Shown here one piece after another: positions 4,729 to 61,036 of a DNA stretch of 61,628 nucleotides (its first letter is position 1; each line of letters starts with the position of its first letter). The DNA is from a virus (lineage: Duplodnaviria; Caudoviricetes). The stretch spans positions 1 through 61,628 of the IMG/VR virus record IMGVR_UViG_3300042195_000088. One strand, written 5' to 3'. The notes beneath the pieces are model-generated. The model had not been told where the DNA came from, did not search any database, and was given only the letters and a program-made list of their open reading frames with translations. The translations under genes and the position numbers were made by a program.

Positions 4729-4953
4729 ATGCAGATTGAGATCAAAGGTCGAACGCTTCGCGTGAAGCGCAAACTCGGTCGCGCATTGGTGACAATGGGG
4801 CGTGCGCGCGAGACGCGGACCTACGAGACGCGCGTGGAGGTGCCGGAGCCGGTTCCGGCTGTTGAGGAAGAACAGGAGATTTCCGAGCGCACCGGCAAGC
4901 CAAAGCGACAGTACCGTCGCCGGGATATGCAGGCCGAGACTGGCGAAGACTGA
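4729..4953 (+). CDS. Small head-module hypothetical protein
   Basis: Strong GAGGAGG RBS; basic KRQYRRRD C-terminus; stop overlaps the portal start. Confidence 0.7.
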   Translation: MQIEIKGRTLRVKRKLGRALVTMGRARETRTYETRVEVPEPVPAVEEEQEISERTGKPKRQYRRRDMQAETGED

Positions 4954-6482
4954 TGCGTCTGTTCGGTCTGGATTTTTCGATCAAGCGCTTCCGCCAGAAG
5001 GCGACGCAGGCGCTCACGTCGTTGAGTGGCAAATGGTGGCGCATCTTCGATGCGTGGCCGGGCGCGTGGCAGCAGGACGTCGTACAGATTGACGAGACGA
5101 AGGTTTCGTCCAACTGGGCGGTGTTCGGATGCGTGACGCTGATCGCAAGCGATATTGCGAAGATGCCTGCGCGTGTCATGCAGTTCAATCGGCAGACGCG
5201 CATATGGGACGAGACGATCATGCGCCCGGTTTTGCGCAAGCCGAATCGCTTCCAGACCCGTATCGAGTTCTTCAAGATGTGGCTGTTCTCCCTGCTCTTG
5301 CAGGGGAACACTTACATCCTCAAGCAGCGCAATGAAGACGGGTTCATCGTCGCGATGTATGTGCTGGACCCGTGCCGTGTCACGCCACTCGTGGCTCCTG
5401 ACGGCAGCGTGTTCTATCAACTCGCGAGCGATAATCTCTCGGGTATCACGGACACTGTCACCGTTCCAGCGAGCGAGATCATCCACGATAGGATGCACAC
5501 GCTGTGGCATCCGCTGATTGGTGTGTCACCGATCTACGCGTGTGGGATTGCAGCCATGCAGGGACATGCAATCCAGCAGAACAGCGCCAAGTTCTTCGAG
5601 AACATGAGCCGGCCGAGCGGGTTGCTGACTGCGCCGGGCGCGATCTCCGACGAGACTGCGGGACGTTTGAAGACCGCATGGCAGGAGAATTACAGCGGCG
5701 GCAATGCCGGCAAGGTCGCAGTGCTGGGCGATGGCCTGAAATACGAGGCCATGACGATCACCGCGGCGGATTCGCAGCTCATCGAGCAGTTGAAGTTCTC
5801 CGGCGAGATGATCTGCGCAACATTTCATGTCCCGCCCTACAAGCTCGGTTTGGGGCAGATGCCGACCGCAAACAATACCGGTGTATTGAACCAGCAATAT
5901 TACGACCAGTGTCTACAGCCAATCGCCGAGAATATCGAGCTGCGTCTGGAAGATGGGCTTGAGCTCGTATCGCCGCAGTTTGAAGTGTGGATGGATGAGT
6001 CTGTTCTGCTGCGCATGGACCCGGCAACACGCCTGAAGGCGCATAGCGAGTCGGTCGGCGGAGGCTGGCTTGCGCCGAATGAGGCGCGGCGCCAAGAAAA
6101 CTACGCACCGGCCGAGGGCGGAGACACCCCGTATCTGCAACAGCAGAATTACTCATTGGCCGCACTCAGCCGTCGCGACAACTCGGAAGGCGTAGGCACG
6201 CAGGTCACGGCGCTGCAGTCGCTCATTGCCGCCGGCGCCAAGGGCGAGATCCCGGTGGATTCGGTGCGCGCCGCGATCAAGGCCGCTTTCCCGCTGCTCG
6301 AGGATGCGGAAGTCGAGGCGATGGTGAAGCCGCTGGAGGACTTCGAGCCTCCCGCGCCGCCGGTAGCCGCACTTCCGGCGCCAGTAGCCGAGGACGAAGA
6401 CGAAGAAGATGACGACGAGGAATTCGCCATGCGTTTCGCCATCGACCTGACGCGGGAACTGGATAATGCCGAAACAGCGTGA
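4953..6482 (+). CDS. Portal protein (HK97 family)
   Basis: AVFGCVTLIASDIAKMP, LLLQGNTY, EIIHDR, GVSPI and NEARRQEN motifs. Confidence 0.93.
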   Translation: MRLFGLDFSIKRFRQKATQALTSLSGKWWRIFDAWPGAWQQDVVQIDETKVSSNWAVFGCVTLIASDIAKMPARVMQFNRQTRIWDETIMRPVLRKPNRFQTRIEFFKMWLFSLLLQGNTYILKQRNEDGFIVAMYVLDPCRVTPLVAPDGSVFYQLASDNLSGITDTVTVPASEIIHDRMHTLWHPLIGVSPIYACGIAAMQGHAIQQNSAKFFENMSRPSGLLTAPGAISDETAGRLKTAWQENYSGGNAGKVAVLGDGLKYEAMTITAADSQLIEQLKFSGEMICATFHVPPYKLGLGQMPTANNTGVLNQQYYDQCLQPIAENIELRLEDGLELVSPQFEVWMDESVLLRMDPATRLKAHSESVGGGWLAPNEARRQENYAPAEGGDTPYLQQQNYSLAALSRRDNSEGVGTQVTALQSLIAAGAKGEIPVDSVRAAIKAAFPLLEDAEVEAMVKPLEDFEPPAPPVAALPAPVAEDEDEEDDDEEFAMRFAIDLTRELDNAETA

Positions 6483-7701
6483 TCTGACCGGACTCGTCAA
6501 GGCCGTTGCGACGGTCGTGCGCGAACATTTCGCGAAGGCTTGCCGGCCGCTCATGGAGCGCATCGAGGCAGTCGAACAGCGGTTTTCCGCCCTGCCGGTA
6601 CCCAAGGACGGAGAGCGCGGCAAGGACGGCCGAAACGCCTTCGAGGTGGCGGTATCGCTCGGTTATGAAGGGACCGTCCACGAGTGGATGGATTCCCTGC
6701 AGGGAAAGAGCGTCATGCTCGAGGACATGAGGCCGCTGATCTTGGAGTTCGTGAATCAGATCCCGAAGCCCAAGGATGGTCTGGACGGGAAAGGCGTCAC
6801 GCTGGACGACGTACGGCCGTTGATTGTGCAGGCTGTTGCCGAACTACCGAGGCCCAAGGATGGGCTCGATGGCAATAGCGTCACGCTGGACGATGTTCTC
6901 CCTCTCGTTGAGAACGCTGTCAAAGCGATTCCTGCGCCGAAGGACGGAAAGAACGGCGCAACGACTGATGAATTGGCGCCGCTGTGCGAGCAGTTGATAT
7001 CAAAAGCCGTTGCCGAGATCCCTAAGCCTAAAGACGGCATTGATGGCAGGAGCGTGACGGCCGAGGAGGTGCTTCCTGAACTGAATGCGCAGCTTCAGAA
7101 AGCTGTCGATTCTCTTCCGATTCCGAAGGACGGAACGAGCGTTACGGTCGAGCAGGTCATGCCGGAATTGCGGGCCGCGCTCGACATGGCCATCAAGGAT
7201 ATTCCGGTTCCAAGGGACGGCATTGATGGCAGGAGCGTGACGCTCGATGACGTCCGCCCGCTCATGGACACAGCCATTGCCACTTGGGCGCTGGAATTTG
7301 AGCGCCGCGCGTCCGATCTGATACAGCGCTGCATTGATCGCATCCCGAAACCTGCTGACGGCAAGGCCGGTCGCGATGCGTTCGACCTCGAAGACGTGCG
7401 GCTTTCTATCGCAGCCGACGAACGGACACTCACGCTAGCATTTGTCCGTGGTGAAGAGATGGTGGAGCGCAGTGTTGTGCTAACGCATCCGATTTACCGC
7501 GGCGTATGGCGGGAAGGTGATTTCAGAAAGGGCGACTGCGTGACGTTCGGTGGTTCTGCATGGATTGCCGTGCGTGACACGAAGGCGAGGCCCGAGACAG
7601 ACGACAGTTGGAAATTGAGCGTGAAGCGCGGGCGCGATGGCAAGGACGGCCTGAAGGGTGATAAAGGCGACCGCGGCCCACCGGGCAAGGTGGCCGCATG
7701 A
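6466..7701 (+). CDS. Repeat-rich collagen-like neck/head fibre protein
   Basis: About 7 PKDGxDGxSVTxxDVxPL repeats; C-terminal YRGVW...GDCVTFGGSAW domain and GxxGxx tail. Confidence 0.75.
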   Translation: MPKQRDLTGLVKAVATVVREHFAKACRPLMERIEAVEQRFSALPVPKDGERGKDGRNAFEVAVSLGYEGTVHEWMDSLQGKSVMLEDMRPLILEFVNQIPKPKDGLDGKGVTLDDVRPLIVQAVAELPRPKDGLDGNSVTLDDVLPLVENAVKAIPAPKDGKNGATTDELAPLCEQLISKAVAEIPKPKDGIDGRSVTAEEVLPELNAQLQKAVDSLPIPKDGTSVTVEQVMPELRAALDMAIKDIPVPRDGIDGRSVTLDDVRPLMDTAIATWALEFERRASDLIQRCIDRIPKPADGKAGRDAFDLEDVRLSIAADERTLTLAFVRGEEMVERSVVLTHPIYRGVWREGDFRKGDCVTFGGSAWIAVRDTKARPETDDSWKLSVKRGRDGKDGLKGDKGDRGPPGKVAA

Positions 7702-46940: not shown

Positions 46941-47739
46941 TCCTCGTCTCCGCATGTTCCGGTCTCTTGATCCTCTCTGACTCTTAGTTGAAATGAGGAT
47001 AGCGATGGCTCTTTGGCTGATTCGTAAAAACGGCAAGAAAGTCAAAGCTCATATATGGGGTGGGGGCGATACAGCTTGTCGTATGGCCTCAACTGGTGGA
47101 CTGAAAATGAATCGATTCGAGGTTCGCAGTGAACGCGGGCAGCACGACATTTGCCACATGTGCCAGCAATGCTCCCAAGTCTCCGGAACTGGAATGGGTA
47201 AAAGTGAACAACTGGCTGATGGAAACGAAATGCGGAAAGTTTCGATGCCGGAAGTACTACTTGGGTGACGTGCTCGACGATCCTGGCGAGTGCCGGTATC
47301 AGCTTTTTGCGGAGAACCGCATGCGTTGCGGCCCGCCCGCGGACTCGTTCGCCAAGGCGCAACAGTTTGCGAATGGGGTTTTTCGATGAATGAACCGATC
47401 GTGAAGATCAAATACCCACTTCCTTGTGGTTGTGCAGGGCCGGCCTACATCAGCCGGTGCGCAACTCATCAGGAAAGCGCTCGTGCCGAGCACCGGGCAA
47501 TGCCCGAAGGCCCGCCCGAGTGCCCGCATTGCGGAGGATCACTTCGTCATCCTCAAGCGCCAGTAGTCCATGGAGGGCGCACGGAATGACCACGCCTGAC
47601 TCGATGACGGCGCGCGGATTCTCAAGCAGCAGCTTAAACAGGGCATTCATGGCGTTGATTAACATCGCAACAAGTGTGCCACTGTGAGCCGTTCGTTTCC
47701 ACATTTGCAGGCCGATGCGGATGCGAAGGCGAATACCTA

Positions 47740-48057
47740 ATGCTTGATGGAACTGAATTTTTCGAGTGCTCGTGTGGCAGTGATGAGCATACGTTGCGAT
47801 TCATTCTGTCGTTTGACGAGGACGAGCCGAGTATCTACACGACCGTATTTCTCGGAGCCTATCCGCTAGGCTGGAAGCGACTGTGGACTGCGATCCGGTA
47901 TCTCTTCGGCTACAAATGCAAGTACGGACACTGGGACTGCTTCGAGCTGCGCCAGGAGGATGCCGAGCGAATGCAGTTCATGCTTCAACGCCTCATCAAC
48001 GTTATTGCTACGCGACAGGAGCGCAAGGTGCAGGCGGATGCGAAGGCGGCAACATGA
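47740..48057 (+). CDS. Hypothetical protein
   Basis: FECSCGSDEH...WKRLWTAIRYLFGYKCKYGHWD. Confidence 0.6.
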   Translation: MLDGTEFFECSCGSDEHTLRFILSFDEDEPSIYTTVFLGAYPLGWKRLWTAIRYLFGYKCKYGHWDCFELRQEDAERMQFMLQRLINVIATRQERKVQADAKAAT

Positions 48058-48614
48058 AGTGGACGGCACGCGAGATCGCGAGAGCCGTGCACCTGAACGT
48101 ATTCAGGGCACAGCATGTCGTCATGGTGCCGGACTGTCAGTGGACCGGGCACGAGTGCGATCTGCTGGTGGTACGCAACGACCTGCGCCTCGTGGATATC
48201 GAAATCAAGATCAGCCGTGCCGACCTGAAGGCGGATGCTGCCAAGGACAAGTGGTTTGACATGCCGGACCGATGGCCGTGGGGACAGGAGCGACCACGAA
48301 CGCCACGCGCTTACCCTGCGAAGATCTGGAAGCATTACTACTGCATGCCGCGCGCAATCTGGGATGACGAGCTGCTTGGCTGCATCCAGCCCATCAGCGG
48401 CATCCTGTTGATCCGCGATCATTACGACGTCGCGCCGCTCGTATCGATCAAGCGACAGGCACGCCCGAACAGGGCAGCCATGGCGATATCGGCGAGGGAC
48501 GTGATCGATATCGCTCGCCTGCAGAGCAACCGGATGTGGGACGCTTACGATGAGGTAGACCGCCACCGGCGCGCGGTCTCATCCACCACCTGCGATGCGA
48601 AGGCGGGCGCATGA
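48054..48614 (+). CDS. MmcB-like PD-(D/E)xK protein
   Basis: ECDLL...IEIKISRADLKAD..KDKW and HYYCMP motifs. Confidence 0.7.
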   Translation: MKWTAREIARAVHLNVFRAQHVVMVPDCQWTGHECDLLVVRNDLRLVDIEIKISRADLKADAAKDKWFDMPDRWPWGQERPRTPRAYPAKIWKHYYCMPRAIWDDELLGCIQPISGILLIRDHYDVAPLVSIKRQARPNRAAMAISARDVIDIARLQSNRMWDAYDEVDRHRRAVSSTTCDAKAGA

Positions 48615-48914: not shown

Positions 48915-49385
48915 ATGAACGCCAAGCTCGACCGCCGTTCGATAGCGCCGATCACCGTAGCGGTGCGCCCACGCCCGATCACGATCGGCACTCCGCGAAT
49001 AAGTCGGCTCACGCTCACAGAGAAGCGCTCACTGAACGCGATACTCAACCGGTGGGGCAACTGGATGGAGAAGCACTCGCACTTCGACGGCTATCCCGGC
49101 GTCAACATTCTGGAGGCGTACATCGGCAGCGATGCTGGTGTTCCGGGTCATCGCATTCTGTGCCTTGAAATGCCCATCGACGTCTACACGACCCATCAGC
49201 GAGTGATCCGACTTCCCGAGCAGGAACGAGAAGCGGTGTGGCTTTGGTACGTCCCGCGAGTGAAGGAAAATGGTACACTCTGGAGTGTGGGTGAGCGCTG
49301 CGAAATAGCTGGAATTACAGAAGAAACGTTACGCAAGCGGGTGTCTCGGGCTCGCATGAGAATCGCGGGAGTCGATCCAGAATGA
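48915..49385 (+). CDS. Q-like late antiterminator
   Basis: LNRWGNW N-terminal motif and C-terminal HTH (GITEETLRKRVSRAR); typical position. Confidence 0.65.
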   Translation: MNAKLDRRSIAPITVAVRPRPITIGTPRISRLTLTEKRSLNAILNRWGNWMEKHSHFDGYPGVNILEAYIGSDAGVPGHRILCLEMPIDVYTTHQRVIRLPEQEREAVWLWYVPRVKENGTLWSVGERCEIAGITEETLRKRVSRARMRIAGVDPE

Positions 49386-49861
49386 GCCTTGTCGGTGTGC
49401 CGACGTTCACTTCGGACGGCAGGCTCCGCGGTTCGTACGTCTACATGCTGATGTGTCAGGACGGCGCGCCGATCTACATCAAAATCGGAATGTCAGACGC
49501 GCCGTTGAGGCGGCTCGAGGAATTGCGCAAATCGTGCGCGGTGACACCGAAGATTCTGGCGACGGTTGCGCTGCCATCGAGAAAGATCGCGTTTGCTCTG
49601 GAGACGGACCTGCATGTGGTGATGGCGCCATGGCAGACGGTGGGTGAGTGGTACTCGTACACCGGGGACGACAAGGCTGCTTTCAATGATTCGTGGCAAC
49701 GCGTCTTTGAGAGGTACGCCCGGCCCGGCTGGTCGCTTCGATGGAGCAAGGTTGCTGTGGAGCCCATGAGGAAGCTCGCGGAGAGCAGAAAGCGGCTGTA
49801 TCAGCATCGCTGGGCTACGCGCGGTCGTGCTTATCATGACTTTACGCGTGATGTTCGGTGA
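49382..49861 (+). CDS. GIY-YIG/T5orf172-like protein
   Basis: YVYM...IKIGMS..PLRRLEEL...LE..LH...GEWY. Confidence 0.8.
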   Translation: MSLVGVPTFTSDGRLRGSYVYMLMCQDGAPIYIKIGMSDAPLRRLEELRKSCAVTPKILATVALPSRKIAFALETDLHVVMAPWQTVGEWYSYTGDDKAAFNDSWQRVFERYARPGWSLRWSKVAVEPMRKLAESRKRLYQHRWATRGRAYHDFTRDVR

Positions 49862-52760: not shown

Positions 52761-53600
52761 GTGGGCTTCTTTCTGATCAGCGGCGCTGGCGGGCAGTCGT
52801 TCGGCGGAGGTGGGGAAGTCTCATCGTTCTTTCATGACGACTTCAGCACTCATCCCGAAGACGCCGCGCCGGTCTCGGTAGGGGCGACCTATGCCGCATT
52901 GGGCTACGTAGCGGGAAACTCAGAGCCCAGTGCTGTCGCGATGCTGGCACGGTCTAGCGTGCATTCAGCGATTCTCGCGGATAGCCGTATCCCGGCCGAG
53001 AAGGATCGCTTTTTCTCGGCTTCCTATCAGAGCGTCGAGCACAACGGACGGCTGCTCGTCGATGTGCGCGGGGCGGATAGCGGCTCGGACCCGCGTGAAA
53101 TCTGGATTTCTCTCTACGAGGGCCGCCCGCCGGGCGAGAACGTATTCTCGGGAGAGAAATGGATTCGTTGCGGGAATTTCGATACCGACTTCGGCGGCGA
53201 CCGCGGCCACGACATTATTTTTTCGTTGGATGCAGATGGTGGCGGCAGCAACTGCAAGACGATCTTTTTTCAGAACTCTGCGAATGCGTTCCAGTGGAAC
53301 CCCGAACCTGAAGTGGGTTTTACCTGGGATGGCTCCAATGAGTTCTTCGAGTTTGGGGTTCGCCTCTCGTCCACGTCGTCCAGTACGGATGGGTGGGGAG
53401 AAGTTTGGAAGGGCGAAACCAAGGTCGACACGTTCAGCAACTTGCGTATGAACGCAGATGCAGGCGACGCGGCGCGCGGCTTTCAGCTAGTCGAGATTGG
53501 CGGCTGGAACAGCGCATCGGGCGGTACCTACCCGATGACGCGAACCATCTCAGCGGTGCGTATCTCGCTCACGAGGCTTGGTCCATGGGCGATTACCTGA
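52761..53600 (+). CDS. Putative lectin/jelly-roll (polysaccharide-lyase-like) virion protein
   Basis: FFHDDFS start, EIWIS...GEKW and DGWGEVW beta-rich pattern. Confidence 0.5.
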   Translation: MGFFLISGAGGQSFGGGGEVSSFFHDDFSTHPEDAAPVSVGATYAALGYVAGNSEPSAVAMLARSSVHSAILADSRIPAEKDRFFSASYQSVEHNGRLLVDVRGADSGSDPREIWISLYEGRPPGENVFSGEKWIRCGNFDTDFGGDRGHDIIFSLDADGGGSNCKTIFFQNSANAFQWNPEPEVGFTWDGSNEFFEFGVRLSSTSSSTDGWGEVWKGETKVDTFSNLRMNADAGDAARGFQLVEIGGWNSASGGTYPMTRTISAVRISLTRLGPWAIT

Positions 53601-54339
53601 CGCCCACCATGAGCTCGTCATTGAAGCGCTTGAGGGTGATTCCGTGAGCCTCACAGGCTTTGCGCACGCTGGCCTCGCAGCCGTGCCCGTGGGTTTCGAT
53701 GACGAGATTGTCGACGACGTCGAGCCACGGACAGGGTGCGGCAAAGAGAGATTCTTCACCACCCTCAATGTCGATCTTGAGCACGCTGATTCGATCGTGA
53801 CCGGTTTCCCTGAGCAACGAGGCGATATCCACGGCCTGCACTTCGGGGATCTCGTGGGCTTCGGCTTCCCGGACGCAACGCCCCCACTCGCGGCCGTCGC
53901 CGCCGGCAAAGTCACCGACCATGAGCCCGGCGGAGCGCCACCAGATGCCCGCACGAAACGGCCGGATGCGAAATCCGTACGGCGTGAGGTTGCAGATCAT
54001 CTGCGCGTAGTTGCCCACGTCGGGTTCGACAGCGACGACCACGGCATGCGGGAAGCGAGTGGCGAAGTATGCCGAACTGAAGCCGACATTCGCTCCGCAG
54101 TCGATGACGAGCTGGGCGCCCCTCACGTGATCGAGGCAGCGGTACTCGCGGTGACTGAATACCTGCCCGAAGGATTCGAGGTCGCTGGTGCCGCGCCGGC
54201 ACTGGAGTGGATAGCGCGCGTGCTTGCTGCGCACGGTGAGCAATTCAGGCGGCGCAAGTCGGTTTCGGATTCTCTGAAATGTGAAGTGCGCCGTAGACAG
54301 CGGGCCGAGATTTCTGAGCACGTCGATGTGACTGAGCAT
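53593..54339 (-). CDS. FkbM family methyltransferase (antisense moron)
   Basis: TSDLESFGQVF..REY, IDCGANVG, VAVEP and LKIDIEGGE motifs. Confidence 0.92.
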   Translation of the reverse strand: MLSHIDVLRNLGPLSTAHFTFQRIRNRLAPPELLTVRSKHARYPLQCRRGTSDLESFGQVFSHREYRCLDHVRGAQLVIDCGANVGFSSAYFATRFPHAVVVAVEPDVGNYAQMICNLTPYGFRIRPFRAGIWWRSAGLMVGDFAGGDGREWGRCVREAEAHEIPEVQAVDIASLLRETGHDRISVLKIDIEGGEESLFAAPCPWLDVVDNLVIETHGHGCEASVRKACEAHGITLKRFNDELMVGVR

Positions 54340-54452
54340 GTGCATCCCTGTCGTTGTTGTTCTGGCGACCATCCTAGCCTGTGTCGCCATTTGGCGGCAA
54401 CCATCGGGAGATTGAGTTAAGTGGGCGCGCAAACTAAAGGCGGAGGCCAAAC

Positions 54453-54688: not shown

Positions 54689-56260
54689 GTGGCCGGGGCA
54701 TTCGTCGATTACGACGACAACGCACCCGGGACGACCAGTCAGTCGTCTATCGCGCTGTCGGCGAACTACACGCCTGCGGCCGGCAATCTCATCATCATTG
54801 CCGTCTCTTATTTCCGCGGCACTCAAGCCACGGTCAATATGCCATCGGCGTGGGGCACGTTCATCCAAGGCGGCCACTTTTACAACGGCGCTGACGGCGC
54901 CGGCGTCCGCTGGGGGATCTACGAGAACGTCTCGGCTACCGCGAGCGATGCCAACGTCACGTTCAGTGGTGGTGACGTGGATTTCCCTGGCATCCAAGTC
55001 GAGGAATTCTCCGGCCTTCTCACCGCATCTGCGCTTGTCGCCAATCCCACAGGGGTGCGGCAAGCCGCACCGGGAACTGGCGCGGGTGCCATCACGGTAT
55101 CTGCAACGCCCGGTTCGGCACCGGCCATCGTGTGGGGGCTGTCCTACTGCATCGGCAGTGCCGACAATTGGGACACCGCAGTCAGTGATACTGGCCGTCC
55201 GCGCATATGGCCCTATGGCGGTGCTACGTTCTTCGGCAAACCCCAGGACGCCGGAGTCATATCCACGGATGCCAAGGCACTTACGTGGACGACGAACAAC
55301 GGTGATGAGATCTACTACTCCATCGCCATGGCGTTGGCGGAGGCGGCCGAAGAGGGAAACGTCACACTCGATGTTGACGCTGGCGCGATCACCGTCGCAG
55401 GCCAGTCAGTCACCACGGCACACACTGCGGCGCTAACCGGTGGCGCAATCTCCATTGCCGGATCGGACGTCACGCTCAATGCAGGAGCGGACACGGCGCT
55501 CTCAGTAGAGGCTGGCGCCATCTCGATTGCGGGCCAGTCGGTCACGGCGAATCTCACTGAAGCCGTCGGCGCTGGCGCTGTCGAGGTCGCCGGCCAGAGC
55601 GTGACGCTCGATCGCACCGCCGTGCTGAGCGCTGGTGCGATTACTGTCGCAGGCCAGGATCAGCTGTTCGAATACGCGGTGCCGTGGGATGCCGGAGTTG
55701 TTACGGTTGCCGGGCAATCCATCGCTGCGGAACTGACGCAAGCTCTCACGGGTGGCGCGATCTCAATCGGCGGACAGGACGTCGCGCTCGATGCCGGGGA
55801 GAACGTTTCGCTCCCGGTAACCGCTGGCTCTATCTCAATCGCCGGCCAGTCACTTGCATTGCAGATTACGGCCAGCGTGTCCGCGGGCGCCGTGAGTCAC
55901 GCAGGTCAGTCGCTGTCAACGCTGCGACAGATGGCGGTGACTGCCGGCGCGGTGAGCATTTCCGGCCAGGACGTCGCGCTATCAGCAACAGGCGAAACGT
56001 CCCTGCCAGTAACAGGCGGGACTATTACGGTGTCCGGCCAGTCGATGGGCTTTGGCATCAGTTCACCGCTTACTGCTGGCGCCACGGCGATTACCGGGCA
56101 GGCGATTGCATTCACGTATACGGCTGACCTGTTGTCCGGATCGATCCAGATTGCCGGTCAGCTCATAACACTGATTGATTCCGGGGCGCTGCCTCCCCAA
56201 TCCGTGCTTGGGCTCACTGCAACCGTCACTCAGGTTGGCAAAAAGGCCACGCTGCAATGA
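54689..56260 (+). CDS. Repeat-containing fibre/appendage protein
   Basis: N-terminal globular domain plus 13 (A/G)G(A/S)I(S/T)(I/V)AGQ(S/D) repeats with 20- or 24-aa spacing. Confidence 0.7.
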   Translation: MAGAFVDYDDNAPGTTSQSSIALSANYTPAAGNLIIIAVSYFRGTQATVNMPSAWGTFIQGGHFYNGADGAGVRWGIYENVSATASDANVTFSGGDVDFPGIQVEEFSGLLTASALVANPTGVRQAAPGTGAGAITVSATPGSAPAIVWGLSYCIGSADNWDTAVSDTGRPRIWPYGGATFFGKPQDAGVISTDAKALTWTTNNGDEIYYSIAMALAEAAEEGNVTLDVDAGAITVAGQSVTTAHTAALTGGAISIAGSDVTLNAGADTALSVEAGAISIAGQSVTANLTEAVGAGAVEVAGQSVTLDRTAVLSAGAITVAGQDQLFEYAVPWDAGVVTVAGQSIAAELTQALTGGAISIGGQDVALDAGENVSLPVTAGSISIAGQSLALQITASVSAGAVSHAGQSLSTLRQMAVTAGAVSISGQDVALSATGETSLPVTGGTITVSGQSMGFGISSPLTAGATAITGQAIAFTYTADLLSGSIQIAGQLITLIDSGALPPQSVLGLTATVTQVGKKATLQ

Positions 56261-56310
56261 AGACGATCGGGGGCATCCTGCGCCTAATTTCACTGTGAAG
56301 GTGTAATCAC

Positions 56311-56349
56311 ATGGCTACTTTTCAAGTCACCGACGAGTGCGGGCAATAG
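56311..56349 (+). pseudogene. Truncated 5' copy of the 56834 gene
   Basis: MATFQVTDECGQ* versus MATFQVVDECGKYL. Confidence 0.8.
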
Positions 56350-56801
56350 CCGAAAAACCCGTAGGACATGTTGCAGTTGTGGCAGAGCACGCGGAATCCA
56401 TCTGGGAAGCCTTCGCGCTGTAGCCATGCATAGAATCGAGCGCCGAGTCCAGTGACTTCTTTTCGATGTTTATTTCCTCCGCCGTTGATGTGATCGATTG
56501 CCAGAAACTCGTATCGGTGCTCGCCGCAGCAGGCGCATTTTCCGCCATAAACATCGAGAATCCGTTTACGGCGCCGTTCGCGTGATTCGCGGCTCATGCG
56601 CAAATAATGCTCTGGATTTCTAGCGTACTTAGCGCGTCGACGTGAACGACGACGCTGCGCTACTTTCGGATCACGCTGCCATTTGGCATTGGCTGATAGA
56701 CAGCATTGCTTACACCACCATGTGAGCCTGTCTCTCTTGGATTTGTCCTGAAAGAACTGATCCCGAGGCTTCTCGTGCTTGCACTTGGAGCAAGTTTTCA
56801 T
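56322..56801 (-). CDS. HNH endonuclease (antisense insertion)
   Basis: KTCSKC N-terminal finger; YGGKCACCGE...LAIDHINGGG...LCHNCN...YCPH. Confidence 0.9.
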   Translation of the reverse strand: MKTCSKCKHEKPRDQFFQDKSKRDRLTWWCKQCCLSANAKWQRDPKVAQRRRSRRRAKYARNPEHYLRMSRESRERRRKRILDVYGGKCACCGEHRYEFLAIDHINGGGNKHRKEVTGLGARFYAWLQREGFPDGFRVLCHNCNMSYGFFGYCPHSSVT

Positions 56802-56833
56802 GCGCCCAATTATAACTGTGAAGGTGTAATCAC

Positions 56834-57274
56834 ATGGCGACTTTTCAAGTTGTCGATGAATGTGGAAAGTATCTAGGGGATGGCACAATAGATCTCGATA
56901 CCCACAGTTTTAAGGCCGTTTTGTCCAACGTTGCGCCGACCAAGGCCGGCAGCACAGTGTTGGCCGACCTGACGGAGATTGCGAACGGTAACGGCTACAC
57001 TACGGGTGGCGTGACGCTCGCTTCGGTCACGTGGCTCGAGACCGGTGCCGGTACGGGTATCTGGCAGTGGACTGTCGCGGATTTCTCATGGACTGCCTCG
57101 GGCGGGTCGATTGCGCAGTTCCGTTACGTCGCAATCTATGACGACACGCCGACGAGTCCCGCCGATCCTCTGGTCGGGTTCTTGGATTACGGCGCCGCCG
57201 TCGATATCACAGTGGGGAACACCTTCACTGTGGACGTCGGCGCGACGGGCATTTTCCGTACGACAGTTTCTTGA
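56834..57274 (+). CDS. Virion structural protein (fibre subunit-like)
   Basis: IDLDTHSFKAVL, EIANGNGYTTGGVTL, WTASGGSIAQFRY and LVGFLDYG patterns of small phage structural proteins. Confidence 0.7.
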   Translation: MATFQVVDECGKYLGDGTIDLDTHSFKAVLSNVAPTKAGSTVLADLTEIANGNGYTTGGVTLASVTWLETGAGTGIWQWTVADFSWTASGGSIAQFRYVAIYDDTPTSPADPLVGFLDYGAAVDITVGNTFTVDVGATGIFRTTVS

Positions 57275-57278
57275 GGAC

Positions 57279-57521
57279 ATGAACATGGCTACCGAAAAAG
57301 AATTGCTCGCTGCCATCGCCGAGGTCGAAAAACAGGCCGCGCCATTGCGGAAAAAGCGCGAGGCGTTGAACGCGGAGAGCGAAGCGCGTCGACTCGAGGC
57401 CCGCAAACTCTCCACGCAGATCCTTACGATTGAGGATCGCGCGCAAGTGCTGCGCTTTGAGCTCAAGATGCAACTGAAGCGCCAGGGGCGATTGACGCAG
57501 ATGGCGGTTACTCCAAAGTGA
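57279..57521 (+). CDS. Small coiled-coil protein
   Basis: GAGG RBS; heptad pattern. Confidence 0.55.
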   Translation: MNMATEKELLAAIAEVEKQAAPLRKKREALNAESEARRLEARKLSTQILTIEDRAQVLRFELKMQLKRQGRLTQMAVTPK

Positions 57522-57536
57522 GAACTTGGCTGCGAT

Positions 57537-57692
57537 ATGGCTGCCATCACTGAGATCAGGAAAATGGAATCGGTTGTCGTCAATCTGACCGTCACGCGCG
57601 AATTCATGCTGCGGGTATGGATTGCCACGCAGCTTTTCAGGCTGGGGGCTTTGGTTCTGGGCGGCCGCGTCGAAATAAACGAGCAGGATTGA
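57537..57692 (+). CDS. 51-aa hypothetical protein (not in ORF track)
   Basis: MAAITEIRKM...RVWIATQLFRLGALVLGGRVEINEQD fills the gap exactly. Confidence 0.5.
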   Translation: MAAITEIRKMESVVVNLTVTREFMLRVWIATQLFRLGALVLGGRVEINEQD

Positions 57693-57693
57693 C

Positions 57694-58038
57694 ATGCTCA
57701 GCGCTGCGCTCAGTCTCGGCTATCTTGCTGGCGACAGCATCGAGCTTGATTTCGCCGTTACCGACGAAGCCGGAGAGGTGGCCAACCTCACGGGAGACAC
57801 CGTGCAGTTTGCCATTGCCAATCGCGCAGGTGACGTCATTCTCGGCACAGAAGATGGAAGCGCTACGGTGACTATCACGGATGCGCCCGGCGGCCTTTTC
57901 TCAATCTCGGTCGCTCCGCAACTTACTGTGGACTTGCTTGGCACCTATCGGTTCCAGGTGCGGCTCGTGGATGTGAGCGGAAATGCGGCAACAGTTGCGT
58001 TTGGCTTCCTATCGTTCAAGAAGAACCTGCTTTCATGA
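57694..58038 (+). CDS. BppU N-terminal-like Ig-fold structural protein
   Basis: AGDSIELDFAVTD...NLTG...ITDAPGG...GTYRFQV pattern. Confidence 0.65.
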   Translation: MLSAALSLGYLAGDSIELDFAVTDEAGEVANLTGDTVQFAIANRAGDVILGTEDGSATVTITDAPGGLFSISVAPQLTVDLLGTYRFQVRLVDVSGNAATVAFGFLSFKKNLLS

Positions 58039-58584
58039 ATCATTCAGGGCTTCGAGAAAGCGGGCCAATTCGTCGGCGGGAACACCTTTCGCGCGCGCCT
58101 TTCGGTAGAAGTCGTAATCCGTCGCGGCGTGGGTTCCGAGCACACGAATGACGCCGTTATCCTTGCTTGCGGCGATGGCTTTCAGCGCATGAACCGGCAA
58201 CACGAAAGTGTTGGCGCTGCTCCATGCCACATAGGCCGACAGGCGAAGCAGGGACGGTTCGTAGTCAAAGTCTGTAACGGGAATGTCGGCGCCGTAGCGC
58301 TGGATGTTGCCGTCGATGTTCACGGCGATTTCGGTGATGCTCGTGATTCCAGGCTGCTCGAGCCGCACGATCACGAGACCCGGGTCGCGCCGGTCCCACG
58401 CAAGGTCAAGTGTTGCGCACTGGGCAGCGAATCCCGCAGCACGAATCTGGCACAGCTTCAGGCCGCTGGCTTTGAGGTAACTGGCCTTCGTGAAGGCGTC
58501 ATGTTCCTCCGAGATTCGGAAACCGAATCCGGCCGCATGGGCGCTGGAGGCGATCAGCAGGGCGACAGCGAAGAGGGCTTTCAT
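58033..58584 (-). CDS. Exported protein with signal peptide (antisense moron)
   Basis: MKALFAVALLIASSAHA signal; AAGGA RBS. Confidence 0.7.
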   Translation of the reverse strand: MKALFAVALLIASSAHAAGFGFRISEEHDAFTKASYLKASGLKLCQIRAAGFAAQCATLDLAWDRRDPGLVIVRLEQPGITSITEIAVNIDGNIQRYGADIPVTDFDYEPSLLRLSAYVAWSSANTFVLPVHALKAIAASKDNGVIRVLGTHAATDYDFYRKARAKGVPADELARFLEALNDS

Positions 58585-58790
58585 TGGTCGATCCTTCGGT
58601 TGAGTGGCTCTCAGCATGGCTCATTGCCCGGGAAGAGGGCTATGGCGGGTTTCACAAGAATGTCCCCCGACGGTCGGTCAGTCCGTTTGATCCCCGGGCG
58701 CCGCAGCAAATCGCCACAGGCGGGATGTGCGGCGGGGACCGAATGGCCCGCCATGGGTACGCCCCGCACTACGCCCTGGCGCTCGCTGGC

Positions 58791-59423
58791 ATGATCGCCC
58801 CGGAGACTCTCAGGGAACTGGAGACGCGTTTCTCGGGTGGCATCGAACTGAAACTGCGTCCCGTGAAGCCAAGCCCGCTGGACACCGTGCCGAATGCGCA
58901 GTCCGTGTTCCATGGCCACCGCATGCAGGAGACAGGCAATCCCAGAGTGCGCAACTACGCGCCCGGGTATGCCGCGCACCTGCCTGATTCGCCGATGACG
59001 GTTGTGGAGCTCGGGATTCTTCGAGGGGTTGGTCTTGCGATCTGGTGCGACCTGTTCCAAAGCACTCGTGTCATCGGGCTCGACGTGGACCTGTCGCATT
59101 TCGAAGAGAATCTGCCGAATCTGATCTCACGTGGAGCATTCACGGAGAACCGGCCGGAGGTGTTTGAGTTTGACGAGCTGGCGCCGGACGCTTCGGAGAA
59201 GTTGGAGGCCATCCTCGGCGACACCAAGGTGCACGTCTTCATCGACGACGCGCTCCATTACGACGCGGCGATTCTGAAGGCGATGCGGGATGCAATGCCG
59301 CACATGGCGCCGGGCGGCCGCTACTTCGTGGAGGACAACGCGAAGGTGCACGAGAAGATCCGCGCGGCCTATCCGGCGCTCGACGTGGAGTCGGTTGGGG
59401 CGCTGACGGTGCTCCAGTGCTGA
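58791..59423 (+). CDS. Class I SAM-dependent methyltransferase (O-methyltransferase-like)
   Basis: VVELGILRGVGLAIW, VIGLDVD, FIDDALH and PGGRYFVED motifs; frame also open upstream to 58584. Confidence 0.85.
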   Translation: MIAPETLRELETRFSGGIELKLRPVKPSPLDTVPNAQSVFHGHRMQETGNPRVRNYAPGYAAHLPDSPMTVVELGILRGVGLAIWCDLFQSTRVIGLDVDLSHFEENLPNLISRGAFTENRPEVFEFDELAPDASEKLEAILGDTKVHVFIDDALHYDAAILKAMRDAMPHMAPGGRYFVEDNAKVHEKIRAAYPALDVESVGALTVLQC

Positions 59424-61036
59424 AGGTGTTTTGCTGGTTCTGGAGGCAGAACCCACAGATGCACGGATATGGCCCGGACAAGGTCAATCTCTGGGCCGAG
59501 CAGATTTCCAGGCATCTGACGATCCCGCACACGCTTGCCTGCGTCACGGATCACCCCGAGGGGATTGACCCGAGCATCGAGATCATCCCGATGCAGCACG
59601 ATTTCGATCACATACGAGTCGCCGCATGGAAAGAGACGCTGAAGCTCCCACAGTGCTATCGGCGATTGACCATTTTCGCCCCTGATGCTGAACAGCGATT
59701 CGGCGCAAAGCGCTTCGTGAGCATGGATCTAGACATGCTGTCTTTCTCGAATCTCGATTCACTGTTCTCGCACGACCACGACTTTCGCATCCTGAAAGGA
59801 ACCGCAGCACACCGCCCCTACAACGGCGGAATGGTGCAGATGACTGCAGGCGCGCGCCCGCAGGTGTTTACGAAATTCACTCCTGAGGGTGCCGCGCAGT
59901 CCCGGCAGAAGTTCGTGGGTTCCGACCAGGCGTGGATCAGCCATGTCCTCGGCTACGGCGAAAAAACATGGGGCCAAAACGAGGGGGTCTTCTACAAGCG
60001 CCTCATGAGCGGAGATTCGTGGGCTCCACCGCGAAACATGCGCCTGTTGTTCTTCCCGGGAAGCCCCAAGCCGTGGGATATCAAGCATTCGGTCCCATTC
60101 ATCCGCGCAGCCTACGAGGGCAAGCCGATTACCCATGCGAGACCCCTGATGCTGCACGCCTACAACGACCCGAAGCACTGGGGTAAGTGGTTCTACGTGG
60201 CAGCGAAGAAACGCGGTGTAAAATGCCGTCTCTTCGATGCGAGTCTTCCGGGTCAGGGCGAGCCCACATTCGTGCGACTCGACCAGCAGGGCCCGCAGCG
60301 GGCCATCAGCCTGTCGATGGTGAAGCGATTGCATGCCCAAGGTTGCCCGACGCTTCCGAGCTCGCAGGAAGCGCTCTGGTACGACGATAAGATCGCCCAG
60401 CACGCAGTCCTGAAGCGATGGATGCCAGAAACCCGAATTGCGCGCACCCACGAGGAGGCTAAACGTCTGGCCGACTCGCTTGAGTACCCGATCATCAGCA
60501 AATCCTCCGAAGGGGCAGGATCTGCCAACGTTCGCGTGCTCAGCAACAAGGTAGAGGCACTGGCCGAGGCCAGCCGTGCATTCGGCACCGGCATCCTCAT
60601 GAGCTACAAGCGCCTGCAAAAGGGGTACGTCTACTGGCAGGACGTCGTACGGGACAACCCCTGCGACTACCGCATCTGCATCGTGGGCAAGTACCTGTAC
60701 GGCCTGAAGCGCATGAACCGCCCGGGTACTCTCATGGCCTCGGGCTCAGGGATCGTTGAAACCCTGAAGTTCGCAACCGACCGGGGGCGCAAAGCCGCCC
60801 AACTGGCAGTAGAGATCAGCCGCGCACTGGGCACTCAGTGGATGGCCTATGACGTGGTGTTCGAAGGGGATAGGCCCCTGGTGCTGGAAATGTCGAGCGC
60901 CTGGACCATGGAGGCGTACAAGGCCTGCCGCCTGTACACGTATGCCCTCGAGCCCACAAAGCTCATGGGCAATGAGTCATTCTCGGTAGCGGTAGAGTTG
61001 CTGCTCAGCATGAGCCAACAGAGTGCAGCGGCATGA
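59417..61036 (+). CDS. Glycosyltransferase-like (GT-A, DxD) / ATP-grasp (RimK-like) fusion
   Basis: N-half: ACVTD, VSMDLD, NGGM, GSDQAWI, FPGSPKPW. C-half: YDDK, YPIISKSSEGAGSANV, YWQ, DYRICIVG, AYDVV, VLEMS. Confidence 0.8.
   Translation: MLKVFCWFWRQNPQMHGYGPDKVNLWAEQISRHLTIPHTLACVTDHPEGIDPSIEIIPMQHDFDHIRVAAWKETLKLPQCYRRLTIFAPDAEQRFGAKRFVSMDLDMLSFSNLDSLFSHDHDFRILKGTAAHRPYNGGMVQMTAGARPQVFTKFTPEGAAQSRQKFVGSDQAWISHVLGYGEKTWGQNEGVFYKRLMSGDSWAPPRNMRLLFFPGSPKPWDIKHSVPFIRAAYEGKPITHARPLMLHAYNDPKHWGKWFYVAAKKRGVKCRLFDASLPGQGEPTFVRLDQQGPQRAISLSMVKRLHAQGCPTLPSSQEALWYDDKIAQHAVLKRWMPETRIARTHEEAKRLADSLEYPIISKSSEGAGSANVRVLSNKVEALAEASRAFGTGILMSYKRLQKGYVYWQDVVRDNPCDYRICIVGKYLYGLKRMNRPGTLMASGSGIVETLKFATDRGRKAAQLAVEISRALGTQWMAYDVVFEGDRPLVLEMSSAWTMEAYKACRLYTYALEPTKLMGNESFSVAVELLLSMSQQSAAA

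Follow-up and report, generated by a model that had tools for sequence, protein, structure and literature searches.

Homing endonuclease genes are considered both markers and drivers of the boundaries of genetic exchange between phages. Such a gene can interrupt a phage gene with no intron or intein involved, as is reportedly the case in Aeromonas phage Aeh1, where mobE splits nrdA into pieces that are both needed and that assemble (genes-in-pieces). Homing endonucleases that are free-standing are already known in phages, as are co-conversion and one-sided repair of the illegitimate type, and one-sided homing in T4 can be resolved by illegitimate repair at microhomology (PMC2988022). Duplicated gene ends beside endonuclease genes are likewise known from yeasts (PMC7282813) and fungal mitochondria (PMC6279837); in the WHO elements of Torulaspora and Lachancea yeasts, the displaced old gene end persists and serves as homology (Coughlan et al. 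2020; PMC7282813). Here we describe a locus in the Caudoviricetes record IMGVR_UViG_3300042195_000088, a metagenome-assembled linear contig of 61.6 kb with a completeness estimate of 81%, the whole of which (61628 nucleotides, nt) was analyzed and is referred to as the window. At this locus an antisense HNH nuclease gene stands directly ahead of a gene for a 146-amino-acid (aa) protein, hereafter gene Y, and the ribosome-binding site and first codons of Y are present on both of its sides. The locus is best read, at a rough probability of 0.55, as the scar from acquiring a free-standing HNH homing-type gene directly ahead of Y, which left behind a dead 12-codon relic of the Y start.

Results

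The locus consists of a 523-aa repeat-rich gene on the plus strand, the HNH open reading frame (ORF) on the minus strand and gene Y on the plus strand (Table 1). A direct repeat of ~62 nt lies on either side of the HNH gene at a spacing of 523 nt, and was called by a repeat finder as 60 nt at 82% identity with the same spacing. It contains the ribosome-binding site and first 9 codons of Y, and the ATGs of the two copies, at 56311 and 56834, are 523 nt apart. The 24-nt core (ACTGTG...ATGGC) has exactly two occurrences in the window, at 56292 and 56815, where the number of repeats expected from dinucleotide shuffles is 0.00, and a flank-to-flank alignment across the HNH gene scored 38 (z ~31). 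An initial annotation of this DNA had placed the ribosome-binding site and first codons of the gene at 56834 on either side of an antisense HNH gene with 35 of 36 nt identical, and this was confirmed (56292-56327 and 56815-56850). The repeat is also longer than first described, extending leftward to 56276 and 56798 with 13/16 nt identical and a 1-nt indel. To the right of the core, identity is 6/11 (56328-56338, where all 5 differences are transitions) and then 7/18 (56339-56356).

The downstream copy opens gene Y (MATFQVVDECGKY..., 146 aa), which is intact behind this second copy of its ribosome-binding site and start, as had been proposed, while the upstream copy, or relic, opens a short ORF of its own. 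Both ends of the HNH gene fall within repeat DNA. Its start codon ('cat' on the plus strand, 56799-56801) lies inside the downstream copy, with 'cct' (56277-56279) as the counterpart in the upstream copy, and its stop (56322-56324) and last four codons lie inside the upstream copy. No inverted repeats were found at the boundaries of the HNH insert. A transposon-type insertion with target-site duplication was considered and rejected, as the HNH gene is the sole ORF, inverted repeats are lacking and the repeat is 62 nt long and diverged.

The gene is predicted to be a free-standing homing-type nuclease gene of the HNH/Endo VII type. The protein matches phrog_2255 'HNH endonuclease' (1.3e-17) and phrog_1035 'endonuclease VII' (2.9e-15), scores 17.5 bits against Pfam Endonuclease_7, under the cut-off of 23.6 and thus short of Pfam threshold membership, and has no PDB match by sequence. 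In an alignment of 56 HNH sequences, C89, C91, C92, D103, H104, C140, N142, C143, N144, C153, P154 and H155 are invariant, residues that we take to supply the catalytic Asp-His and Asn and two CxxC zinc pairs. The AlphaFold2 (AF2) model has a predicted local distance difference test (pLDDT) score of 93, and its best Foldseek rows, though weak, are HNH-bearing structures (Cas9 4oge, E 0.029; Gme HNH 4h9d, E 0.13; T5 SciA 9qgx, E 0.36). A search of 5.8 billion proteins produced 1283 homologues and no HNH protein above 69% identity, the nearest (P0121, 69% identical) having a 26-aa tail. The gene is single copy in the record. The source gene call (P0124) is only 91 aa long, but homologues span the full 159 aa starting at the ATG at 56801, and the 159-aa form is therefore used here. 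Its description as a free-standing HNH gene with neither an intron nor an intein holds: the catalytic and zinc residues are invariant, the gene lies antisense to its flanking genes and so cannot be an intein, and no Rfam family, intron or other RNA, matched at E<=1 within 55000-58500.

The codons that follow the shared start had been read as GAC GAG TGC GGG upstream and GAT GAA TGT GGA downstream, and this was correct, but their interpretation as an ancestral and a protectively recoded version of the same DECG was not upheld. The HNH ORF ends ...GYCPHSSVT and stop. The pattern ...C..C[NH]...G.CPH is found in 117 of the 120 best HNH homologues, followed by unrelated tails of 1-153 aa, and homologues on viral contigs have the same pattern up to CPH with tails that all differ after it. 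Read in antisense, on the plus strand, G-Y-C-P-H becomes ..G TGC GGG CAA TAG CC, the source of the C, G, Q and stop in the upstream 'copy'. Because these codons are the antisense of the invariant Y-C-P-H of the HNH family, the upstream C-G-Q-stop is, as judged from this alignment, native to the HNH gene and not a copy of the target. The further claim that the end of the HNH protein is encoded by the antisense of the upstream copy stands for SSVT and the stop, which are the only Y-type DNA in the HNH coding sequence (the last four codons plus stop), and falls for the HNH-native YCPH. The third positions of the HNH and Y frames coincide in the antisense register, and the change at all third positions thus reflects two independent codings with common wobble positions. 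The antisense of the true Y start reads ...YFPHSSTT and stop, compared to ...YCPHSSVT and stop for the HNH. The 7/18 identity between the HNH-native bases and Y (56862-56879) has a p of 0.19, and the differences are 9 transitions and 2 transversions. A more general caution follows, in that an antisense overlap with shared wobble can yield the same amino acids with all third positions changed in the absence of recoding.

Divergence between the repeat copies is uneven, with 1/36 differences in the core versus 5/11 just to its right (Fisher p 0.0016). Residue 7 is T in the upstream copy and V in the downstream copy, and both start types occur in natural relatives (QVTDE at loci L007, L162 and L165; QVVDE at L002, L160 and others). 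Based on the uneven divergence and the natural occurrence of both types, the copies fit better as two alleles than as one duplicate that has drifted.

The base composition of gene Y changes near codon 30. The G+C content at third codon positions (GC3) is 0.40 for codons 1-30 versus 0.74 for codons 31-146, a difference of -0.34; among 113 full-length Y homologues, the mean difference is -0.02 (sd 0.085, minimum -0.20) and none (0/113) has a drop as large. The GC3 of the HNH gene is 0.57 and that of the upstream gene 0.69. A low-GC tract that runs from the HNH gene through approximately codon 30 of Y fits a co-conversion tract, and the earlier suggestion that the 5' end of Y was replaced is consistent with its compositionally foreign first 30 codons.

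Gene Y has 1586 homologues at E<=1e-10. Its AF2 model (pLDDT 96) has the Bxb1 tail tip chain 9d93_Ra as its best Foldseek match, a weak one (E 0.025, prob 1.00, TMt 0.70), and a structural role, tail-tip or fibre-associated, is plausible. For the proposed insertion at the 5' end of a structural gene, the position is borne out, with the HNH gene abutting the Y start, and the word 'structural' is plausible and unproven. Separately, Y has a mosaic N-terminus. QV[VT]DE (residues 5-9) is present in 3/120 of the best homologues and YLGDG in 48/120, and among these 120 the two are combined only in P0001, a member of the window's own 90% cluster; its cluster mate P0242 has a start equal to that of Y. 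The seam of the mosaic (residues 10-11, C-G) is the point at which relic and HNH sequence meet in the upstream copy. Separate clade membership of the Y body and the first 9 codons was rejected, as the body identities (69% versus 67-70%) do not separate the groups.

No HNH homologue was found beside Y homologues within the fetched flanks of 80 viral and 80 metagenome loci (0/80 and 0/80; 0/160 combined). Of 82 evaluable loci, 68 have a same-strand ORF whose end is no more than 100 nt from the Y start; the gap is wider at the other 14, and the 7 of these inspected hold small same-strand ORFs and no nucleases, on which basis a recurrent insertion site ahead of Y was rejected. Flanking repeats as a habit of the HNH family were also rejected, as 16 other HNH-homologue loci score <=11 and none exceeds the largest score from its own shuffles, which argues for a one-off event. 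A degenerate pattern of the core had no match in the viral contig collection. The sporadic presence of the HNH gene combined with its foreign composition suggests a recent, foreign arrival.

The 90% cluster of Y contains two further proteins (P0001 and P0242), 91-92% identical to Y, from contigs of 10465 nt and 12637 nt. A homologue of the upstream gene is also from a 10465-nt contig, and none of the listed HNH matches is from a contig of 10465 or 12637 nt. One close relative probably has both neighbours and no HNH gene, with the two genes placed on one contig by the equal length of 10465 nt alone. The upstream gene is variable; the best homologue outside (P0244) matches it over the repeats at 54% identity, covering 42% of the query, and its product has no PHROG or significant Pfam family. 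A search of the phage collection (blastn, distant mode) returned short matches of the HNH core to Arthrobacter phages and one match in Y to an enhanced biological phosphorus removal (EBPR) phage. The best Y loci are 60% (viral), 75% (metagenomes) and 64% (genomes) identical, and none of the Y loci found, the best being 60-75% identical, is near enough to define the ancestral sequence.

The full stretch was present only in run X1, the probable source run, when sequencing runs were searched. A contig produced from that run by a second assembler matched 55600-57600 with 0 differences; this second assembly is of the same sample and is no independent replicate. No HNH-free joint was seen among the run X1 contigs, which drop rare variants, and its absence from the sample is not implied. 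In run X2, a soil metagenome from a different study, a 202-nt contig is 1 letter off window positions 55600-55779, within the repeats of the upstream gene, and covers no other part of the 2-kb stretch.

Elsewhere in the window, a portal profile (phrog_2271) is spread across the overlapping plus-strand ORFs 4953-6482 and 6466-7701, at profile positions 30-412 and 502-857, respectively. The second of these ORFs includes coding tandem repeats of 84-87 nt (6599-7277), and the split profile could reflect a frameshift, a sequencing error or two genes. A 159-aa product at 49382-49861 (+) has T5orf172 and MUG113 domains (Pfam 1.4e-05 and 2.6e-06, both over cut-offs) and is a second possible homing-type nuclease gene, though with a GC3 of 0.73 it is not foreign-looking. 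The block containing Y is flanked by possible modification genes: an FkbM-type methyltransferase on the opposite strand (53593-54450, -; Pfam 8.7e-12) and, at 58584-59423 (+) and 59417-61036 (+), a weak match to Methyltransf_24 and an ATP-grasp protein of the RimK type (22 bits, cut-off 21). A 21-nt string (GATGCGAAGGCGG...ATGA, family D13) occurs three times, at 47720-47740, 48037-48057 and 48594-48614, with spacing like that of gene boundaries, and may be a shared signal combining a ribosome-binding site with a stop-start overlap.

Table 1. Features of the HNH locus and of the surrounding window
Feature	Position	Strand	Description
Upstream gene	54689..56260	+	523 aa, ~20-aa repeats (families D2/D3), tail-fibre-like sequence
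Upstream repeat copy (relic)	56277..56338	+	Intergenic flank, ribosome-binding site, ATG, 9 Y-type codons
Relic ORF	56311..56349	+	12 codons, MATFQVTDECGQ and stop; same ribosome-binding site as Y; codons 10-12 and stop are antisense HNH codons
HNH / Endo VII-type nuclease gene	56322..56801	-	159 aa, predicted N-terminal CxxC...CxxC zinc ribbon and HNH core
HNH-specific DNA	56339..56798		~460 nt, HNH codon 2 to His155, GC 0.53; bounded by the repeat alignment and by homology to HNH relatives, which ends at C-P-H
Downstream repeat copy	56799..56861	+	HNH ATG (antisense, 56799-56801), working ribosome-binding site, Y start
Gene Y	56834..57274	+	146 aa, phrog_644 (5.3e-20), probably tail-tip or fibre-associated
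Y codons 1-30	56834..56923	+	GC3 0.40, contiguous with the low-GC HNH gene; candidate co-transferred flank
Main structural module	0.4-18 kb		Terminase, head, portal, tape measure, tail fibre
Terminase gene	398-2059
Replication genes	44-47 kb
Second block of plus-strand genes	51-58 kb	+	Contains the HNH locus

Discussion

The repeat, the identity of the HNH gene, its sporadic presence, the HNH-native C-G-Q-stop and the break in composition are all directly observed features of the locus, and the uneven divergence, the composition break and the joint positioned exactly after C-P-H make a single acquisition the simplest account. The donor would have been a related phage with an antisense HNH gene in the short spacer ahead of its own Y gene, from which the HNH gene was copied in along with the donor spacer, ribosome-binding site and ~30 first codons of Y. 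On the right side, the exchange could have been resolved by ordinary homology within Y, near codon 30. On the left side, the variability of the repeat-rich upstream gene would have left nothing homologous to use, and resident DNA ending in its own Y codons 9-10 may have been joined just past C-P-H to the HNH 3' end through a microhomology of a few bases (around GAGTG). The resident ribosome-binding site and 9 codons would then persist as a dead relic and the downstream copy would provide the working Y start, with the relic going on to supply the last four HNH codons and stop on the other strand and to open the 12-codon ORF.

Several observations weigh against an acquisition of this type. The purine/pyrimidine match between the 18 HNH-native nt and Y codons 10-15 is 16/18 (empirical p 8e-4, with a null of 300000 random sense/antisense coding pairs in the same register), and to the right of the core the match is 27/29, a value reached by 2 of the 300000 random pairs. 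HNH homologues at unrelated loci already match at 10-15/18 (6 motifs, 5 loci), for which reason deep homology through the HNH tail was rejected as the explanation of the 27/29 match. Most of the match is likely a coincidence of two protein motifs, which may itself have favoured the left joint, and the unexplained remainder counts in part against the acquisition. Additionally, a perfect 24-nt core at the ribosome-binding site adjoins saturated wobble differences, which is not predicted for two diverged alleles and needs an extra cause; for example, the initiation region may be constrained, a patch may have been converted or the core may serve as a homology arm. The two Y relatives at 91-92% identity share the protein start of the downstream copy, and at least one of them apparently lacks the HNH gene. 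The downstream start is thus not HNH-specific at the protein level, contrary to the link drawn by the initial annotation; the imported-type start would be normal for this sub-lineage, and the relic, with T at residue 7, would be the odd one. The comparison with these two relatives is one of proteins. Further, no promoter-like or terminator-like site was called for the HNH gene, and its nuclease activity is a prediction.

A possible, though rather unlikely, alternative is that the relic, the HNH gene and a cleavage-resistant Y 5' end together form a self-contained homing cassette, a three-part phage counterpart, at the 5' end, of the yeast WHO elements. In such a cycle, the HNH would cut sensitive Y starts, the relic would act as the left arm and the Y body as the right arm, and the old start of the victim would become the new relic. 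The architecture parallels that of an endonuclease gene with a resistant duplicated gene end and a displaced fragment of the old end (PMC7282813), the low-GC3 stretch at the start of Y (30 codons) is continuous with the HNH gene, and the 35/36 core of the relic is long enough for a homology arm, which would be useful when built in beside an upstream gene this variable. The restriction of the Y N-terminal mosaic to the window's own cluster is also as expected from the swapping of gene ends. For such a cassette any phage with a related Y would be a possible target regardless of its upstream tail-fibre gene, the invariant C-terminus of its nuclease would be interlocked wobble-for-wobble with the antisense of the N-terminal codons of its target, and it would be the first viral 5'-end analogue of an element known only from yeasts. 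However, the arrangement is not recurrent, either among the 160 Y loci, none with an HNH gene, or at the 16 HNH-homologue loci, none with flanking repeats, and neither an HNH protein above 69% identity nor the core pattern was recovered from the respective collections. The downstream protein start is common to relatives seemingly without the HNH gene, half of the difference between the supposedly sensitive and resistant versions is HNH coding sequence, and the alleles themselves are putative, proposed through an argument from sequence.

Duplication in situ, in which an HNH fragment of ~460 nt entered at a staggered break, or through unequal crossing-over or template switching, is distinctly unlikely. 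The 62-nt repeat would initially have been identical, its edges diverging later with the HNH ATG, an AT-rich leader and tuning of the tail. Consistent with this, the HNH-specific DNA is exactly bounded by the repeat, both its start and stop codons come from repeat DNA, and the differences are at repeat edges near or within functional signals, including a TTATAAT on the HNH strand just before the ATG. Conversely, the uneven divergence noted above (1/36 versus 5/11) fits a single duplicate poorly, approximately half of the wobble sites to the right of the core have changed, more than a recent duplicate with 24 perfect nt would allow, and the low GC3 up to codon 30 of Y is left unexplained; terminal inverted repeats, a transposase and a called promoter are all lacking.

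It is very improbable that the HNH has been domesticated, for example as a packaging-associated or recombination nuclease, with the mini-ORF or the repeat regulating translation of Y. The ORF is intact with all invariant residues and the mini-ORF has the same ribosome-binding site as Y, but the gene was found at none of the 160 related loci, runs on the strand opposite its neighbours, has a foreign composition, is not beside the terminase gene and has no conserved partner. An assembly artefact that fused two strain variants is hardly credible, as a linear metagenome contig ~81% complete and confined to its probable source run would allow for one, but the second assembler agreed at every position, the copies differ and the HNH ORF is in frame through both junctions.

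If the locus is indeed the scar of a single acquisition, its value lies in the junctions. Natural junctions that show the entry of a homing gene into a new site are rare, and this locus retains both of its junctions: a homologous one, with a tract in a tail-type gene that was likely co-transferred, and a non-homologous one that falls exactly at the end of the conserved core of the nuclease. The locus would provide a concrete, testable natural example of 'one-sided' acquisition.

The known systems each share part of this arrangement. Unlike the split nrdA of Aeh1, the locus here combines a complete downstream gene with an upstream piece of 9 codons. As in the WHO elements, an endonuclease gene lies between a complete gene and a fragment of that gene's end, but there the 3' end of FBA1 is replaced and here a 5' end with its ribosome-binding site, and the WHO proteins are of LAGLIDADG type and intein-derived (PMC7282813). 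WHO elements are also recurrent, clustered and have demonstrated resistant and sensitive alleles (PMC7282813), in contrast to the single occurrence and putative alleles of the HNH locus. In fungal mitochondria, for example those of Endoconidiophora resinifera (atp6, cob), a duplicated gene end is similarly split from the intact gene by free-standing or degenerate endonuclease ORFs, though these C-terminal duplications are organellar and involve 3' ends and LAGLIDADG or GIY-YIG ORFs (PMC6279837). Like the HNH here, the cyanophage nuclease F-CphI is free-standing and carries an Endo VII-like His-Me motif, and it lies beside the gene it targets, as the HNH gene may, but it acts with an intron in psbA, and the likeness is one of description, with Pfam Endonuclease_7 below its cut-off for the protein here (PMC6083498).

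A limited search of the open-access full-text literature returned no phage case in which the duplicated ribosome-binding site and start of a neighbour supply the start and stop of a nuclease gene, and the passages searched in papers on a Xanthomonas oryzae phage (PMC2248197), Rephine.r (PMC8351571) and nuclease boundaries (PMC10448857) hold nothing on duplicated gene starts. The nearest parallel is with the T4-type free-standing homing endonucleases (Seg, Mob; intronless homing), in which a nuclease gene lies between genes with no intron or intein, is sporadic among relatives, co-converts its neighbouring flanks and forms a microhomology junction where one flank is non-homologous (PMC2988022). 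The protein at this locus is a predicted zinc ribbon plus Endo VII-like HNH and not a GIY-YIG Seg or T4 Mob protein. Unlike the T4-type cases, the non-homologous side has here left a 62-nt duplicate of the neighbour's ribosome-binding site and start, and the nuclease ORF takes its start and stop codons from the two copies of that repeat.

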